DNA of 64,000 bases from an uncultured bacterium. GTDB lineage: Bacteria > Chloroflexota > Anaerolineae > Anaerolineales > UBA4823. The notes under the pieces are model-generated. The model saw nothing but the letters and a program-made list of their open reading frames with translations. It had not been told where the DNA came from and ran no database searches. A program made the translations under genes and the position numbers. The stretch covers positions 8,507 to 72,506 of the forward strand of contig CBFDCK010000004.1 of the NCBI GenBank assembly GCA_965603285.1, read 5' to 3'. Positions 6,824 through 62,569 of this stretch are shown in pieces. Position 1 is the first letter of the stretch, and each line of letters begins with the position of its first letter.

Positions 6824-7713
6824 GAAAACAATCCCTTTCCTGTGCGGAAAATTTGCATCGCAGCTTTGACCCCATCTCCAACAGCAATAGAAGCCTGCCG
6901 GTAGATGTCATTTTTAACATCTCCAATAAAATGGAGTAGTCCTGCAGATTGCAATGCTTCCCTCTGCTCCGTGATTTGATCTGATAAAAAATCAGTGTCT
7001 GGGACCCTGCCAATCGCTCCTACCAGGTAATCGACTTGGAAACTAGAAGTCCCCTCAATTGCTTTATATTGTACCATCATCCCCCCTTGTTGATTTGAAT
7101 AGATGCTCTCAATACATGCGTTATCGAAGTAGCGGATATTGGGGTCCAGTTCTGCGCGTTCCCACAATAGCGGGAGGCACTTATGAACAAACCCTCTATT
7201 CAGAATGATGACTTGATTGCCCTTGGCGAGATTCAAAGCATAATCAAAAGCAGCATCGCCAGCGCCAACAATTGCGATGACTGCCCCACTCTCTTGAAGA
7301 AGCGGGACAACCTGGTAATATATTTTGTCTTGGAGGCTTGCTGGAATATCAAAACCGGTCAGTAAAACAGGTTTCGTTCCTGATGCGACGACGATAATTT
7401 GTGAATAATATACGCTTGTTCCAGCTTCAACGAGAAATAAACCATCCTCTAACTTCACCCTGGTAACACTAGCTTTGATTGGTTGGATGGAAAGGTTTTT
7501 TAATTGCTCCTCAAAAAGACTGGTTAGATGCAGTCCTGAAATTCCGACCGGAAAGCCAGGGTAATTTTCTACCAGATTCGCATTTTTCAACAAGCCCCCC
7601 AACATATTCCTTTCAAGCAGCAAAGGCGTAATGCCATAACGCTTGAGTTGGATAGCCGCAGCAATTCCGGCTGGACCTGCCCCGATAATCGTCACACCTT
7701 CAACTTTATTCAT
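6820..7713 (-). CDS. FAD/NAD(P)-dependent oxidoreductase, thioredoxin-reductase-like but lacking the CxxC redox centre
   Basis: IIGAGPAGIAAA and VGAGDAAFDYA dinucleotide-binding motifs; ENYPGFP as in TrxB. The CATC position is replaced by YYQVV. ATGA overlap with the rSAM gene. Confidence 0.8.
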   Translation of the reverse strand: MNKVEGVTIIGAGPAGIAAAIQLKRYGITPLLLERNMLGGLLKNANLVENYPGFPVGISGLHLTSLFEEQLKNLSIQPIKASVTRVKLEDGLFLVEAGTSVYYSQIIVVASGTKPVLLTGFDIPASLQDKIYYQVVPLLQESGAVIAIVGAGDAAFDYALNLAKGNQVIILNRGFVHKCLPLLWERAELDPNIRYFDNACIESIYSNQQGGMMVQYKAIEGTSSFQVDYLVGAIGRVPDTDFLSDQITEQREALQSAGLLHFIGDVKNDIYRQASIAVGDGVKAAMQIFRTGKGLFS

Positions 7714-20677: not shown

Positions 20678-20704
20678 CTGAGTAAAGCCTCTACTCAACA
20701 TTTT

Positions 20705-20732
20705 AAACCCGGGCGTGCCCGGGTTTTTTTTT
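20705..20732 (+). terminator. Intrinsic terminator
   Basis: AAACCCGGG-cgtg-CCCGGGTTT, with the T run continuing to nine T. Confidence 0.85.
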
Positions 20733-20911
20733 ATACAGCCAGTATGAGCTACATTCATGAGGGACTCCTGGATTATTGATAATCAACACAACATTCTGGT
20801 TCAATTATATAGAATTGCGACATAATAGATAGGCATTGTCGGGCTGCGCACAAGTACCCTAATGGATCGAAAAAGAGACGCTTAGAGTTGCAACCATGGA
20901 ATTGGATTCTG

Positions 20912-56965: not shown

Positions 56966-58144
56966 TTATTCCAAAGTCATTTCTCCCGATTCTGATTCTA
57001 CGAAATTGTGCAACAAAGAATTCAATTCATTAATCGCTTCATTTCGGGCTGCATAATGCCTTTCACCATGCGTTTCAAGTGACAGATGCACCAATCCGGC
57101 TAAACGAAGGGTTTTTAAATGATGCGTTACCGTCGGAGCGCGCAGTCTTAATTTGCGAGCAAGCTCAGCCGGTGTCATCGGTTCCTGCGCTAAATAATGC
57201 AGGATCCGCAACCTGGTTGGGTCTGAAACAGCTTTAAGTCCCCGCAGCAGTGCATCGGGAATAACTTCACCGTGTTCAAGTGATGCATCCTTGGGACGTA
57301 CTCCAAACGTAACCAACATCTTCTTTTCGCTTATTTCACCAAAAATGACGAGGGGGGTACACCAATATGAAGGCACAAGCACCATCTCAGTCATTTCAGA
57401 AAGATTATCCATATACAGCCCTTGAGAAAGTTGCTCAAACAACTCAGGAAATGGAAGACGCTTTGCTAAATCCTTTGCTTTGCGCAAACCATCCTCTAAC
57501 ACCGGTTCTATTCGTTGCTCCTCTTCTGAAAAAAATGCATGGTAATAGTTCTCCAGGGCTGCTAAATAATTTTCACCATACTCGACAGGATGAATCCATG
57601 CATCCAGGATGCATGCCAGCACTTTCGATGAGGGGATTTTGTGGTGCTTTCCTTGGGAGCGATATGTAGTGCGATAAGCTTTATTGAGAGTTTCAATATC
57701 AGCGTCGTTCCACGATCTCCGGTCTGCAACATCCTTCAATACTTCGTTTATTTCCTGAAAGTAACACGTTGAGAACACCAGCATAGGTAAAAGCTGATCT
57801 GATGGTAATTGCCGTAAAGCCCACAACGCACTGGAGGCACTCTTAGGAGCCGGTAAATTATATATCCACTTCAAAGGGGGACCGACAAGCCTTTCTGCAA
57901 CCAACAGCGTTTTACGGTCATCAGTTGAAAGACGTGATCGAACACCGGCTGCCCACGAAGAGCGCAAACCAAAGCTGTCCGGCTCATGCAAGACCGAAAG
58001 ACTGATAAAAAAATCGTACGCAGTACCAGTGTCCCAACTCAATTGGGGCAATTGAGAGTATTCTCCTGATTGTACCAATTGGTCACTGCTGTTTTTATCA
58101 ATATTCGTTTCGTTATTGTCGGATTGGATTAGATTTTCGTTCAT
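56966..58144 (-). CDS. ArsR/SmtB-family transcriptional regulator with a ~290-aa uncharacterised N-terminal domain
   Basis: C-terminal wHTH VSDPTRLRILHYLAQEPMTPAELARKLRLRAPTVTHHLKTLRLAGLV. The ATG at 58144 forms an ATGA overlap with the upstream small ORF. Confidence 0.75.
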   Translation of the reverse strand: MNENLIQSDNNETNIDKNSSDQLVQSGEYSQLPQLSWDTGTAYDFFISLSVLHEPDSFGLRSSWAAGVRSRLSTDDRKTLLVAERLVGPPLKWIYNLPAPKSASSALWALRQLPSDQLLPMLVFSTCYFQEINEVLKDVADRRSWNDADIETLNKAYRTTYRSQGKHHKIPSSKVLACILDAWIHPVEYGENYLAALENYYHAFFSEEEQRIEPVLEDGLRKAKDLAKRLPFPELFEQLSQGLYMDNLSEMTEMVLVPSYWCTPLVIFGEISEKKMLVTFGVRPKDASLEHGEVIPDALLRGLKAVSDPTRLRILHYLAQEPMTPAELARKLRLRAPTVTHHLKTLRLAGLVHLSLETHGERHYAARNEAINELNSLLHNFVESESGEMTLE

Positions 58145-58362
58145 ACCCGCACCCGGGAGAACTCTGCGCATGAACAATTACTCTCTTTTCTAATTCTCAT
58201 TCCAACAGATATCAGTGTATTGCCAAGTCTAAGCATCAACCTATCCCTAATGCCTGGTAAGGAGAATTTTGCTCTCTTTGACAAACGTTCTCTTTTAACG
58301 GCACGCAGAAGTTCATCCCGATAGGCTTTACCAAAATCATAATCACTGTGATAAACAGGCAT
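58141..58362 (-). CDS. Small 73-aa protein translationally coupled to the ArsR-type regulator
   Basis: AAGGAG-6 nt-ATG at 58362 (MPVYHSDYDFGKAYRDELLRAVKRERLSKR...). Its stop overlaps the regulator's start. Confidence 0.5.
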   Translation of the reverse strand: MPVYHSDYDFGKAYRDELLRAVKRERLSKRAKFSLPGIRDRLMLRLGNTLISVGMRIRKESNCSCAEFSRVRV

Positions 58363-58895: not shown

Positions 58896-60452
58896 TCACT
58901 CAGGCGATTCTGAGAAATACTTATCAGTGATGGGTGTTATGTCTTCTGTTGTATATTTTTGAAGGAGAGTAAAAAAATCACTCGTAGTGGCAATCTTGTG
59001 TGTGAAGCTTTGGGCATAATCTCGGAGGAAATCAAAAAAGGCTTCATCGCCGATTGAAAGCCGTAGATCTTCCAGGAATAATGCTCCATTCAAATAGACC
59101 GCATCCCGGTAAGAGCGATATGCATTGGCTACACCGTGGGGATTATAAATGCTGTCGTCCACCCAGCCTTGTGGTTGATAATAAAAAATTCGATAATTCC
59201 ACCACCACTCGAGTGCTTCAGGATATTTATTTTCATAAAATAGGCGCTCGCTGTAGGTACAAAAAGCTTCATCCAACCAGGGCTCAAGTGCCTGATCGTT
59301 GCCCACCATTGCATACCACCATTGGTGAGCGGTCTCATGAGCCGCTATGGCTATCAAATACTCTCCAGGTGTATTTGTATATAGATTGTAAAAACCGTTG
59401 CTTAAGAAATACATTCCATCGTATTCCATACCGTCCATGAAATCTGCCTCAACCACACTCAATATCTCCCTGGGATACGGACCGAAGAGATCAGAATAAA
59501 GCGCCAAAGACTCAACAGTGGTTTGAAGGACCGCTTCACCTGCGTTTGTGTGAAGAGGAAATGAATAACTTAGAACAGTCACTGAATCCATCGTGTCAGT
59601 CATCACCTGGTAGTCGTGACTGACAGACCAGACAAAGTTTCTCGCATCTTTGAATTGGAATCTATGCCAGTTATCATCAATTTTTGCTGGCGCGCTGGCT
59701 GCGATGGTCAGATCTTCGCGCTCATCCAGCAGTTTGATGGCAACTTCAAAATCTGAGGTTTCGTAAGCCAGATGTTCGCCGTAGAAGCCGGCTTTGTGAG
59801 ACAACCAGCCTGTGCCAGGAATATATGGGGGAATGAATGGATACCAATCCACGAAATTGGTCTGGCGTTCTGTGTACCCAAAGGGAACCGGTCGTTTATT
59901 TGCAGATCGATCAGGAGAAGGCAAGTCGAGCTCGTAAGATAAGTTTATCCTGATTTTCTCTCCGTGTTCTAATGGTTCCGACAGGGGCAATCTTAGTTGG
60001 CTGCCTTCCCATTTGTAATCACCAATAGGATCTCCACTCTCCCAATTTAATTCGCTCAGTGTGAAAACATCCGAATAATAGACTGGTTCTACCATCAACA
60101 ACAAATCTGAAAGCGGTTCGGGAGCGTTGTTGTGATAAATGATCTGCTCGTCTACAGCCAGATGGTGATTGTCGTAGTTAAGTTCAGCGCTGAGGATGTA
60201 TTGGGTGTTCTTATGATCTATCGCTAGGGAAGTAGAGGTTCGGGGAAAGGTTGTAGGGTCATTGGGATGGGTTGATGGAGTAGATGGTTGGTCTTGCTCC
60301 ACAGCATCTTCATATGGCGTTCCTGGGGTATTTGTTACAGTAGGTTTATTTGATTCAGGGCTTTTGACCACACCAGTTGGGCTGCCTCCAGCGCAAGCAG
60401 ATAAAACGAGCGTGAGCATGAAAACCAGATAAAACGATACGCTATGCAACAT
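58896..60452 (-). CDS. M1-family metallopeptidase, lipoprotein
   Basis: Lipobox LSAC. HETAHQWWY (HExxH) with a downstream E (WLDEAF). 518 aa. Confidence 0.8.
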   Translation of the reverse strand: MLHSVSFYLVFMLTLVLSACAGGSPTGVVKSPESNKPTVTNTPGTPYEDAVEQDQPSTPSTHPNDPTTFPRTSTSLAIDHKNTQYILSAELNYDNHHLAVDEQIIYHNNAPEPLSDLLLMVEPVYYSDVFTLSELNWESGDPIGDYKWEGSQLRLPLSEPLEHGEKIRINLSYELDLPSPDRSANKRPVPFGYTERQTNFVDWYPFIPPYIPGTGWLSHKAGFYGEHLAYETSDFEVAIKLLDEREDLTIAASAPAKIDDNWHRFQFKDARNFVWSVSHDYQVMTDTMDSVTVLSYSFPLHTNAGEAVLQTTVESLALYSDLFGPYPREILSVVEADFMDGMEYDGMYFLSNGFYNLYTNTPGEYLIAIAAHETAHQWWYAMVGNDQALEPWLDEAFCTYSERLFYENKYPEALEWWWNYRIFYYQPQGWVDDSIYNPHGVANAYRSYRDAVYLNGALFLEDLRLSIGDEAFFDFLRDYAQSFTHKIATTSDFFTLLQKYTTEDITPITDKYFSESPE

Positions 60453-60527: not shown

Positions 60528-61478
60528 TCAGGATGCCATCTCTTCTTTCACTTTTTGGTAAAGGGTTTCAGCCTTGAGCTCGCTTAAAGTGTAGCAGGGT
60601 GCCTGGAGGTGATCGGCCAGATTTTGTGCAAGACCTTGATCAAAAGCGGCGTGTTCCATATTTATGACCACGCTTCGGATCTCGTCGGTGGAAATTTGGT
60701 CTGCCAGGCGGTTTGCCTCCTCCTGTGGAGGAAGATTGCTCATAGAGACGTTGCCAGCCCCATCGGTCAAGAGGATAATTAAGGGGTTCACATCAGGGTG
60801 CAGGATGCGCTCTTTTTGGATAACCTGGTGAGCGCTGTACAGACCAGCAGAAAGAGGCGTCTTACCACCGACCGGGATGTCAGCCAGAGCGCGTTTGGCA
60901 AGCTGAACAGAATTTGTTGGAGGAAGGATGAGCGTTGAGCGATTTTTCTGGAATACAACCAGCCCAACCCGGTCGCGACGTTTGTAGGCATCGGTCAAGA
61001 GGGAAAGTATAGCACCTTTGGTAGCCGACATGCGTTCTGCAACAGCCATTGACCAGGATGCATCAACAACGAAAAGAATCAAGTTCGCAGTCTTCTTAAT
61101 TCGGATCTTGCGCTGAAAGTCGCTGGATTTAATGGCAAAAGCCAGCCGTTTACGCTGTTCGATGCGCTTCTTTTGGTGCGGGGCAGCGGCGCGAATGGTA
61201 GCATCGAAAGCGATATCATCGGTTTTTCCGTGAGCTGGACGAGCTTGGATATAGCGCCCGCGTTTGCGATCGGTATGTGAACGCGAGCGCCTACCAGCAT
61301 GCCGGCGTGTTGTTCTATCGAGTGGATTGTCAATCTTGCGTGGGTCAAAGGTTGAACCGACCTTTACCTTTTCTCCGCCCTCCCACCAGTTGGCGCTGAT
61401 TGTATCAAATACTTTCTGATGAGCGGGTTCGGCGGGGACTTGCTGTGTATCTTCGATCTGAACTTCCGTCGTCAGGGC
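60528..61478 (-). CDS. ChlD/BchD-like linker plus VWA domain; no start codon of its own, reachable only in the -1 frame from the upstream AAA+ ORF
   Basis: Hand translation shows the frame is open from the stop at 61518-61520. There is no ATG/GTG/TTG until the internal TTG at 61082. Basic linker RRHAGRRSRSHTDRKRGRY; VWA MIDAS motif VVDASWSM. Confidence 0.75.
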   Translation of the reverse strand, partial: ALTTEVQIEDTQQVPAEPAHQKVFDTISANWWEGGEKVKVGSTFDPRKIDNPLDRTTRRHAGRRSRSHTDRKRGRYIQARPAHGKTDDIAFDATIRAAAPHQKKRIEQRKRLAFAIKSSDFQRKIRIKKTANLILFVVDASWSMAVAERMSATKGAILSLLTDAYKRRDRVGLVVFQKNRSTLILPPTNSVQLAKRALADIPVGGKTPLSAGLYSAHQVIQKERILHPDVNPLIILLTDGAGNVSMSNLPPQEEANRLADQISTDEIRSVVINMEHAAFDQGLAQNLADHLQAPCYTLSELKAETLYQKVKEEMAS

Positions 61479-62569
61479 TTTTTTTTTTCGCTGTGTGACT
61501 CCTCTTTGGGTACGGGTTCAGGTTCACCTTCACCGGACGAAGCGCCTTGCAATTGTTCAATTCGTTCTTGCAGTTCTTCGGTCGTTATCTCGGATTGATG
61601 GAAGGGACCGCGCTTGATACGGTGAGGTAATGCCAATTCCGCCGCCAGAGCGATATCGCGATCAGTTATCGCTGTCCTGCCTTCAAAAGCAGCATGAGCT
61701 CGGGCAGTTTTCAAAATCACTAAGTCGGCGCGATGCCCGTCCACGTCCAAGGAAGACGTCAAAGCCGCGATGGAAAGCAAATCACGATTTGAGTAAGTGA
61801 CCTTGTCAATTAATGTGCGTGCTTCTTCGATCTGGCGAGATAATTCCACCTCGGAAGGCAGCCATTGCTGGCGAAATTCTTCCTGATTTGTCTCAAATGC
61901 CAAATTGCGCTGCATAATAAGGACCCGGTCTCTGGCGTCGCGTATCCCGTGGATTTCAACCGATAAAGCGAATCGATCCAGCAGTTGGGGACGTAAATCT
62001 CCTTCTTCAGGGTTCATCGTCCCGACGAGGATAAAGCGCGCCGGATGGGAGAAGGATATCCCCTCTCTTTCGACAATGTTGACCCCCATAGCGGCGGAGT
62101 CGAGCAGGAGGTCTACGACATGATCGTCAAGCAGGTTGACCTCGTCGATGTAGAGCAGACCACGATTGGCGGCTGCCAGAACACCTGGCTCGAAGTGCCG
62201 TTCACCTTTCTGAATAGCCTTCTCGATATCAAGGGTTCCTACCACGCGATCTTCAGTGGCGGAGACTGGCAAATCAACGAATCGAATCTGGCGTTTTTCT
62301 GTTAACAGTTCTTTTTCTGCTGGCATTTGTTCCTTCACCCAATCAGACCAGGTGTTGGGAGCATTAGGGTCGTCATTGAAAGGTGAATCGGCAAAGACTA
62401 CGATTTGGGGTAGAAGTGCGGCCATTGCGCGTGCGGCAGTGGACTTTGCGGTCCCACGCTCACCACGTATCAGTACTCCACCTATACGGGGGTCAACAGC
62501 GTTGAGAACCAGGGCACGTTTCATGCGATCCTGGCCGACGACAGCGGTAAAAGGATAAATCGGAAGCAT
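61472..62569 (-). CDS. Magnesium/cobalt chelatase ATPase subunit, ChlI/BchI-like (zero-frame product)
   Basis: PFTAVVGQDRMKRALVLNAVDPRIGGVLIRGERGTAKST (Walker A) and LLYIDEVNLL (Walker B). 365 aa. Confidence 0.85.
   Translation of the reverse strand: MLPIYPFTAVVGQDRMKRALVLNAVDPRIGGVLIRGERGTAKSTAARAMAALLPQIVVFADSPFNDDPNAPNTWSDWVKEQMPAEKELLTEKRQIRFVDLPVSATEDRVVGTLDIEKAIQKGERHFEPGVLAAANRGLLYIDEVNLLDDHVVDLLLDSAAMGVNIVEREGISFSHPARFILVGTMNPEEGDLRPQLLDRFALSVEIHGIRDARDRVLIMQRNLAFETNQEEFRQQWLPSEVELSRQIEEARTLIDKVTYSNRDLLSIAALTSSLDVDGHRADLVILKTARAHAAFEGRTAITDRDIALAAELALPHRIKRGPFHQSEITTEELQERIEQLQGASSGEGEPEPVPKEESHSEKKKP
61478..61488 (-). promoter_or_regulatory. A10 run containing an A_AAA_AAG slippery heptamer (candidate -1 frameshift / transcriptional slippage site)
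   Basis: The minus strand reads GAA AAA AAA AAG CCC TGA in the zero frame. GAGGAG lies 10 nt upstream of the run. Confidence 0.6.

Follow-up and report, generated by a model that had tools for sequence, protein, structure and literature searches.

Chelatase and dnaX recoding systems

According to what is reported of work by Antonov from 2020, the small and medium chelatase subunits can come from one chlD gene. A gene with such a layout is described here in a 64-kb stretch of DNA (the window; contig CBFDCK010000004.1, positions 8,507 to 72,506) from an uncultured bacterium of the Anaerolineales, in which an open reading frame (ORF) coding for a ChlI-like AAA+ ATPase and a start-less frame coding for a VWA domain overlap at a run of ten A's (A10) on the minus strand, to which all site coordinates refer unless noted. 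Frameshift-dependent chlD (fs-chlD) genes have been published since 2013, as the first-pass annotation of the window had noted, and the recoding principle is unchanged by this locus. The window gene is another member of the fs-chlD family, in a taxon where the family had already been recorded, and its A-run very probably serves as a true recoding site for two products, kept by selection.

Antonov et al. (2013) described a cluster of magnesium chelatase genes with a conserved -1 frameshift, one Chloroflexi genus being included, and validated the corresponding cassettes in E. coli (PMC3711429). These genes were later treated by Atkins et al. (2016) in a review section headed "Magnesium chelatase: also regulatory?" (PMC5009743), and Kuznetsov et al. 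(2022) reported 169 fs-chlD genes of the -1 and +1 types, naming Anaerolineae species in which fs-chlD occurs in the absence of cobN and of a pathway for B12 or chlorophyll, and stating that the function of fs-chlD in those Anaerolineae is unknown (PMC9227772). Downstream RNA structure usually accompanies fs-chlD sites (PMC9227772; PMC5009743).

The resemblance of the window gene to fs-chlD lies in the ChlI-like AAA+ ORF that overlaps a start-less VWA frame on the same strand, in the A-rich slippery site (A_AAA_AAR or poly-A) placed in the overlap and followed immediately by a zero-frame stop, and in the predicted origin of small and medium subunits from one gene. As in that family, a full-length ChlD-type fusion can be assembled, the run is conserved under purifying selection with a stop right after it, and there is no conserved start or ribosome-binding site. 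Unlike the usual fs-chlD genes, no downstream structure was detectable in the window's clade. Two aspects go slightly beyond the examined texts, namely the lack of any stimulator besides the run, and the retention of the run in in-frame relatives with an apparent order in which the in-frame gene with the run preceded the -1 clade; in-frame relatives keeping the A-run are not mentioned in the examined texts of Antonov 2013, Atkins 2016 and Kuznetsov 2022.

Two dnaX systems are also comparable. Thermus thermophilus dnaX, which is recoded by transcriptional slippage at A9, shares with the window gene an A-run of 9-10 nt that needs no ribosomal stimulators, two products with a common N-terminus, and in-frame relatives with nearby stops in both alternative frames. 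Similarly to Thermus dnaX-type sites, the run is conserved whatever the codon phase, and the -1, +1 and in-frame configurations all keep it. Unlike Thermus dnaX, the window gene would give its short product by standard decoding and its long product by slippage. With the E. coli dnaX cassette, the window gene has in common the identical A_AAA_AAG heptamer in phase and a Shine-Dalgarno (SD)-like GAGGAG upstream; it differs in that the SD is not conserved, no hairpin is found, the long product needs the shift and the run consists of 10 A's. Since both the conserved SD and the hairpin are missing, the analogy with this cassette comes down to the heptamer.

The slip site and its two reading frames

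Read along the minus strand, the site comprises GAGGAG (61504-61499), TCACACAGCG, the A10 run (61488-61479), G, CCC and TGA (61474-61472). The run, which appears as T10 on the plus strand (61479-61488), is the slip site and the longest homopolymer anywhere in the window. The zero frame crosses it as AGC GAA AAA AAA AAG CCC TGA, so that the heptamer A_AAA_AAG (61478-61484) stands in the X_XXY_YYZ phase of that frame and is a candidate ribosomal -1 tandem slippage site. The zero-frame TGA (61472-61474), placed two codons past the run, ends the short product, and another TGA (61518-61520) closes the -1 frame upstream. Therefore, the frame change is confined by these two stops to a 49-nt overlap that holds the run. 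The GAGGAG motif (61499-61504), made up of two Glu codons, is located 10 nt upstream of the run and 13 nt upstream of the heptamer.

The zero-frame ORF (ORF1; 61472-62569, minus strand) codes for a ChlI-like AAA+ ATPase of 365 aa with the Walker A motif GERGTAKST, ends in SEKKKP-TGA, and matches the Pfam families Mg_chelatase, AAA_5 and AAA_lid_2. It corresponds to the non-shifted default product, and its first 364 residues are the N-terminus of the long one. The -1 frame segment (60528-61478, minus strand) consists of 316 codons and a stop, and codes for a basic linker followed by a VWA domain with the MIDAS-type motif DASWS (60624-61079, minus strand), with Pfam matches over residues 134-240 (VWA_2) and 134-285 (VWA) of the segment. 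This frame is open between the stops at 61520-61518 and 60530-60528. A -1 slip in the run leads to a conceptual product of 680 aa with the junction ...SEKKKALTTEVQ... (SEKKKALTTEV), and the junction peptide of the long product, SEKKKALTTEVQIEDTQQ, is identical for -1 programmed ribosomal frameshifting (PRF) and for a transcript with one additional A.

The -1 segment has no start codon over its first 132 codons, and its first ATG, GTG or TTG is the TTG at 61082, 392 nt beyond the zero-frame stop. Both start codons available to the VWA part, this TTG and the ATG chosen by gene callers, sit at or after the DASWS motif, so that a separately initiated protein would be without any of the conserved linker and, if begun at the ATG, would have a truncated VWA domain as well. 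Gene callers predict VWA stubs of 173 or 184 aa. An 89-aa ORF (61079-61348) lies in a frame that differs from the conserved VWA frame. The first-pass annotation had read from the letters of the window the A10 on the minus strand with its T10 counterpart, the AAA+ ORF ending two codons past the run, the open -1 frame with its VWA domain and no start before the TTG at 61082, the off-frame nature of the 89-aa ORF, and the in-phase heptamer whose slippage would give about 680 aa; all of this was reproduced when the frames, stops, Pfam matches and product length were computed.

Support from assemblies and close relatives

A run of 11 A's would make the gene an ordinary fusion, and the first-pass annotation had singled out A10 versus A11 as the point to verify. 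A10 was found in all six independent assemblies of the same species (L081-L086; ENA/JGI), which are 99.4-99.9% identical to the window; these are separate Illumina-type assemblies given as consensus sequences, in which minor subpopulations can stay hidden. The identical 365-aa ORF1 protein occurs on 11 contigs, those of the six assemblies among them. Moreover, in strain L085 the zero-frame stop is TAA in place of TGA and the -1 frame changes synonymously (CTG>CTA), which is the pattern expected under constraint on both frames.

The close relatives are split in the same way. The 120 best database matches of ORF1 alone (84-100% identity) are all short forms, with lengths of 364-369 aa except for five of 384-413 aa and none of about 680 aa, and they end 0-5 residues past KK or KKK, with a single outlier at 24. 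When proteins were clustered at 97% identity or more, 28 of the 29 clusters had 365 aa. Relatives fused into a single ORF, 680-aa forms at 100% coverage, share 62-82% full-length identity, and none exceeds 82%.

Homopolymers are error-prone, and the existence of fused relatives at 62-82% identity could suggest a sequencing or assembly error in the run, or an ordinary fused chlD decaying as a pseudogene. This explanation, which retains practically no credence, was refuted by the A10 on which independent Illumina-type assemblies agree, by the split state of the closest relatives (120/120) and by the strong purifying selection on both halves described below, to which can be added that the run is kept although synonymous sites are saturated.

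A strain contig with 97% identity (L088:2582-2590; ENA ERZ23498717 scaffold_33355) presents A9 in place of A10, by which ORF1 enters the +1 frame and reaches 387 aa. It is either a true within-species run-length polymorphism or an assembly error, and it could mirror a possible route to the +1 lineages.

Phase variation at the DNA level, in which an A-tract contingency locus toggles between split (A10) and fused (A11) genotypes, would accommodate both the A9 of this contig and the changes of frame configuration in the tree, at least six in number. It is nonetheless extremely unlikely, given the A10 in 6/6 near-identical assemblies, the constancy of the 365-aa form among clusters, the absence of fused alleles above 82% identity and the -1 configuration, which is monophyletic and stable across about 40 species in a quick neighbour-joining tree built with an arbitrary archaeal root from metagenome-assembled genomes (MAGs), some of them error-prone-looking.

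Conservation of the run among orthologous loci

A scan of one genome per species yielded 80 loci, mostly from Anaerolineae MAGs, and each was classified by comparing the frames of its N-terminal and C-terminal tblastn matches; L031, in which the two matches lay at different places, was left out as an artefact. By this classification, 38 loci need a -1 change, 6 need +1 and 35 are in frame. An A-run lies inside the frame overlap in 44/44 out-of-frame loci (23 A9, 20 A10 and one A7). In some orthologues, this overlap is only 16-19 nt long, essentially the run alone (the shortest, of 16 nt, being TAAAAAAAAAGCCTGA), and the shift must therefore take place in the run. The zero-frame stop follows 1-3 codons past the run in all 39 loci needing -1.

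Selection acts on the nucleotides of the run as well as on the peptides of both frames. Considering all run-bearing loci, 57 of 59 have A9 or A10, and all three codon phases are found. Lys codons elsewhere in these genes are AAA in 55% of cases; the preservation of an uninterrupted A9-A10 with so many alternatives available and with synonymous sites saturated thus indicates nucleotide-level selection on the run. The start-less segment of 133 residues, from the run to the first start in the window, is conserved as a peptide directly from the run onward, with near-invariant WWEGG, GRRS..TDRKRGRY and DIAFDATIRAAAP. Its nonsynonymous divergence (dN) is 0.15-0.3, the synonymous divergence (dS) being saturated between species, and sister-species pairs have dN/dS values of 0.02-0.14 in both halves; purifying selection on the start-less -1 frame is strong, with dN/dS at about 0.1 or below. 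The alignment of orthologues, which had been proposed as a check on the site, showed that the run, the early zero-frame stop and the VWA frame without a conserved start are all kept.

These comparisons also bear on the possibility of two separate genes, the VWA protein being translated without any frame change, either from an internal start or through reinitiation after termination at the ORF1 stop (at a CTG overlapping the TGA, for instance). Such an arrangement is suggested by the 173/184-aa VWA ORF of the gene callers and by the GTGA at the stop overlap of a few orthologues (ATGA in one, L070), but it is very improbable. The first possible start of the VWA frame is scattered among orthologues from -1 to +392 nt relative to the zero-frame stop, and this variability means that there is no conserved initiation site. 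The window is devoid of ATG, GTG and TTG for 132 codons past the run, starts at or after the MIDAS motif would sacrifice the whole conserved linker, peptide conservation begins right at the run, and in the in-frame relatives one continuous protein of 680 aa has the same KKK junction.

The run is not restricted to out-of-frame genes, since A9 or A10 is also present in 14 in-frame relatives. In the in-frame Anaerolineae genes (L003-L011; L087:2029-2038), it occupies the same linker position, and both alternative frames are shut within 7 codons in 6 of 10 in-frame run loci, versus 1-5% of positions in those genes. L087 (the in-frame allele P0004) has A10 with one extra G, and its -1 frame meets a TGA after two codons. 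Among in-frame relatives compared as proteins, 115 of 116 have KK, KKK or KKKK in the linker. By analogy with Thermus dnaX, these in-frame genes (L003-L011 and L087) may make a short ChlI-like form by slippage.

In the neighbour-joining tree, the +1 state evolved five or more times within the -1 clade, and the run was retained. Two sister species (L021 and L024, with the run at about 7100 in each) both need +1 with A10 and are separated by a dS of about 1, and the dN/dS of their VWA part is 0.04; a long product thus appears to be made in them despite the required net +1/-2 change.

Three loci from 'MFD' MAGs (L001, L002 and L016) have N and C parts that are formally in the same frame and yet a stop interrupting the span; this pattern is suggestive of additional indels, which are probably homopolymer errors.

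The sole -1 locus with a short run is L070, which near position 7100 carries A7 (TCA AAA AAA GTA TGA). Its ATG overlaps the stop (ATGA), and it has the strongest predicted downstream fold (z = -3.6); a hairpin-stimulated ribosomal shift or translational coupling may operate there instead. In an uncultured member of the Leptospirales (L037), an in-frame A10 stands elsewhere in the linker, at its start (KKKSESG), and the -1 frame reaches a stop one codon further on; in this spirochaete chlD-like gene, a slippery run may have arisen independently.

Stimulatory elements around the run

The first-pass annotation had likened the GAGGAG upstream of the run to the stimulator of dnaX. The motif is indeed present in the window, but neither its presence nor its spacing is conserved, as GAGGAG-type SD motifs are absent in about half of the orthologous loci and variably spaced in the others. 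Because the linker is Glu-rich, GAGGAG arises there as Glu-Glu codons, and the copy in the window, not being conserved in orthologues, is probably incidental.

RNA folding was assessed over the 90 nt after the run and the 112 nt around it in the window, and for 59 loci over the first 70 nt past the run in comparison with dinucleotide shuffles; it gave no signal of a stimulatory structure. In the window, the 90 nt past the run fold no better than the shuffles (z = -0.27). Similarly, no downstream structure was found across the 39 loci needing -1 (mean z = -0.25), only two of which fell below -2, one of them being L070. At the nucleotide level, nothing but the run of 9-10 A's, in any phase, is conserved among the orthologues.

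Proposed routes to the frame change

By standard decoding, the A10 mRNA would be read up to the stop two codons after the run, giving the 365-aa ATPase, and a net -1 change within the run would join the 364 N-terminal residues to the basic linker and the VWA domain in a ChlD-like protein of 680 aa. In the proposed mechanism, RNA polymerase slipping on the 10-nt A/T tract would be the main source of this change, yielding a subpopulation of A11 transcripts with one continuous ORF, and ribosomes slipping in tandem by -1 on A_AAA_AAG would raise the yield further. Like ChlI and ChlD, the two products would presumably come together in a mixed AAA+/VWA complex. Recoding of the fs-chlD type with both contributions is regarded as the probable explanation, and transcriptional slippage as its main route, which was judged from sequence conservation, is itself somewhat probable.

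Several lines of comparison favour RNA polymerase slippage. First, only the run is conserved, with neither a conserved SD nor downstream structure. Second, run lengths cluster at 9-10 nt, which is the length of the RNA polymerase hybrid and one at which the bacterial enzyme slips efficiently (Atkins et al., 2016; PMC5009743). Third, the +1 lineages keep the run with the VWA part still under selection, and A9/A10 persists in the in-frame relatives, whose two other frames are closed by stops close to the run, in the arrangement of Thermus dnaX. Moreover, runs of at least nine A's slip during bacterial transcription (PMC5009743), and magnesium chelatase cassettes assayed in E. coli gave 10%, 40% and 63% frameshifting for A7, A9 and A11, respectively (PMC3711429).

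The alternative is a purely ribosomal -1 PRF of the E. coli dnaX type, in which tRNA-Lys pairs would slip on A_AAA_AAG with the help of GAGGAG pairing to 16S rRNA, all transcripts being homogeneous A10. The correct phase of the heptamer and the GAGGAG placed 13 nt upstream of it in the window agree with this route, and published fs-chlD work reads such sites as PRF signals. It was nevertheless considered rather unlikely, because SD-like motifs are absent or variably spaced in about half of the orthologues, no downstream structure is detected in the window or on average over the 39 loci, and selection maintains 9-10 A's where seven suffice. In addition, the run is retained in +1 and in-frame lineages, reporter efficiency grew with run length, and the slippage of runs of nine or more A's in bacterial transcription makes a homogeneous A10 pool unlikely.

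Some considerations weigh against the explanation based mainly on RNA polymerase slippage, or against how far it can be carried. The A_AAA_AAG phase is common to 15 of the 17 A10 loci needing -1, as a ribosomal mechanism would select, and the literature terms these sites ribosomal frameshift signals (PMC9227772; PMC5009743). Furthermore, 'MFD' MAGs are the source of four of the six +1 loci, and three other MFD loci carry extra stops, so that some +1 calls could be homopolymer errors and MFD frame calls need caution. We infer from sequence the existence and the ratio of the two proteins, as well as the respective shares of transcriptional and ribosomal slippage. Finally, the fusion falls just under the NCBIfam cut-offs and has no large subunit near, and 'chelatase subunit' is here a description of architecture with a putative function.

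Architecture of the products and the chelatase partner

The domain architecture is that of ChlI/ChlD, and the chelatase function is putative. The 680-aa fusion aligns over positions 1-640 of 641 of TIGR02442 ("putative cobaltochelatase") and 1-606 of 608 of the BchD-ChlD model, and it aligns with the BchI-ChlI model as well; this end-to-end agreement bears out the earlier assignment of a ChlI-like short product and a ChlD-like long product with the order AAA+, linker, VWA. All three curated NCBIfam cut-offs are missed by the fusion, with 761 versus 779.45 bits for TIGR02442, 456 versus 499.55 for TIGR02031 and 412 versus 466.95 for TIGR02030. By sequence match, the nearest solved structures are ChlI (8osf/6l8d; residues 4-325, E about 1e-104) and, for fusion residues 496-627, the VWA domain of BchD (2x31_A).

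Like ChlI/ChlD (BchI/BchD) and the TIGR02442 ChlID-type proteins that have CobN as partner, the long product would have an AAA+ domain, an acidic/basic linker and a VWA domain with MIDAS. Unlike both ChlI/ChlD and the ChlID-type cobaltochelatase, it scores below the curated cut-offs and is accompanied by no CobN/ChlH in the 64-kb window or in the flanks of its relatives, which extended up to 6 kb. The first-pass annotation had already stated that cobN and bchH are absent from the window, and neither CobN/ChlH nor a second chlI was found there. The search of the window for a cobalamin riboswitch and other RNA families turned up a single tRNA and nothing else. In the A-run relatives, these flanks contain no ORF of CobN size, and the two largest ORFs there code for a sensor diguanylate cyclase and a beta-helix protein.

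A different context is seen in Dehalococcoidia. The homologues there (about 45-57% identity) are in frame without an A-run, and each immediately follows an ORF of about 1270-1350 aa (L033, L044, L048, L050, L059, L063, L067, L072, L076, L077 and L080). The ORF at L033:768-4610, the only one of these tested, codes for CobN (TIGR02257, 1259 bits). In the sampled loci, CobN linkage and the A-run are mutually exclusive.

Evolution and annotation of the gene

The base of the neighbour-joining tree is formed by the in-frame homologues that lack the run and adjoin CobN, followed by an in-frame Anaerolineae grade with A9/A10 and stops close in both alternative frames, and then by a single later transition to the -1 clade that contains the window gene. 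In-frame alleles at 75-82% identity keep the run. Based on this order, it can be tentatively proposed that the A-run is older than the gene split and works in every frame configuration. If so, fused-looking 'putative cobaltochelatase' genes in the clade would also yield two products, the long one by default and the short one by slippage, and evolution would tune subunit stoichiometry by flipping the default product. In the same tentative proposal, the ChlI/ChlD pair without CobN would serve something else than tetrapyrrole metalation, such as a remodelling machine of the MoxR/VWA type.

Annotations in this clade should join the AAA+ ORF to the VWA stub as one recoded gene, which pipelines currently call as a 365-aa "ATP-binding protein" and a truncated VWA ORF of 173 or 184 aa. 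In addition, the natural series of A7, A9 and A10 runs in -1, +1 and in-frame states could decide between transcriptional and ribosomal recoding of chelatase genes.

Neighbouring genes and other features of the window

An M1-family peptidase gene (58896-60452, minus strand) follows the chelatase-like gene on the same strand at a distance of 76 nt, and 9 related loci also have such a gene downstream; in 4 loci, the peptidase gene is followed by a gene for a 403-aa protein with a C-terminal ArsR-type helix-turn-helix (HTH), found in the window at 56966-58177 (minus strand). These M1 peptidase and ArsR-HTH neighbours may be functionally linked to the chelatase-like gene. The upstream neighbour is divergent and codes for an S1-domain protein.

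The second-longest homopolymer of the window (T9 on the plus strand, A9 on the minus strand) is intergenic, within 20700-20740, where it borders a perfect GC hairpin (CCCGGGC-ACG-CCCGGG) with TTTAAAA after it. The element looks like a bidirectional intrinsic terminator and not a recoding site.

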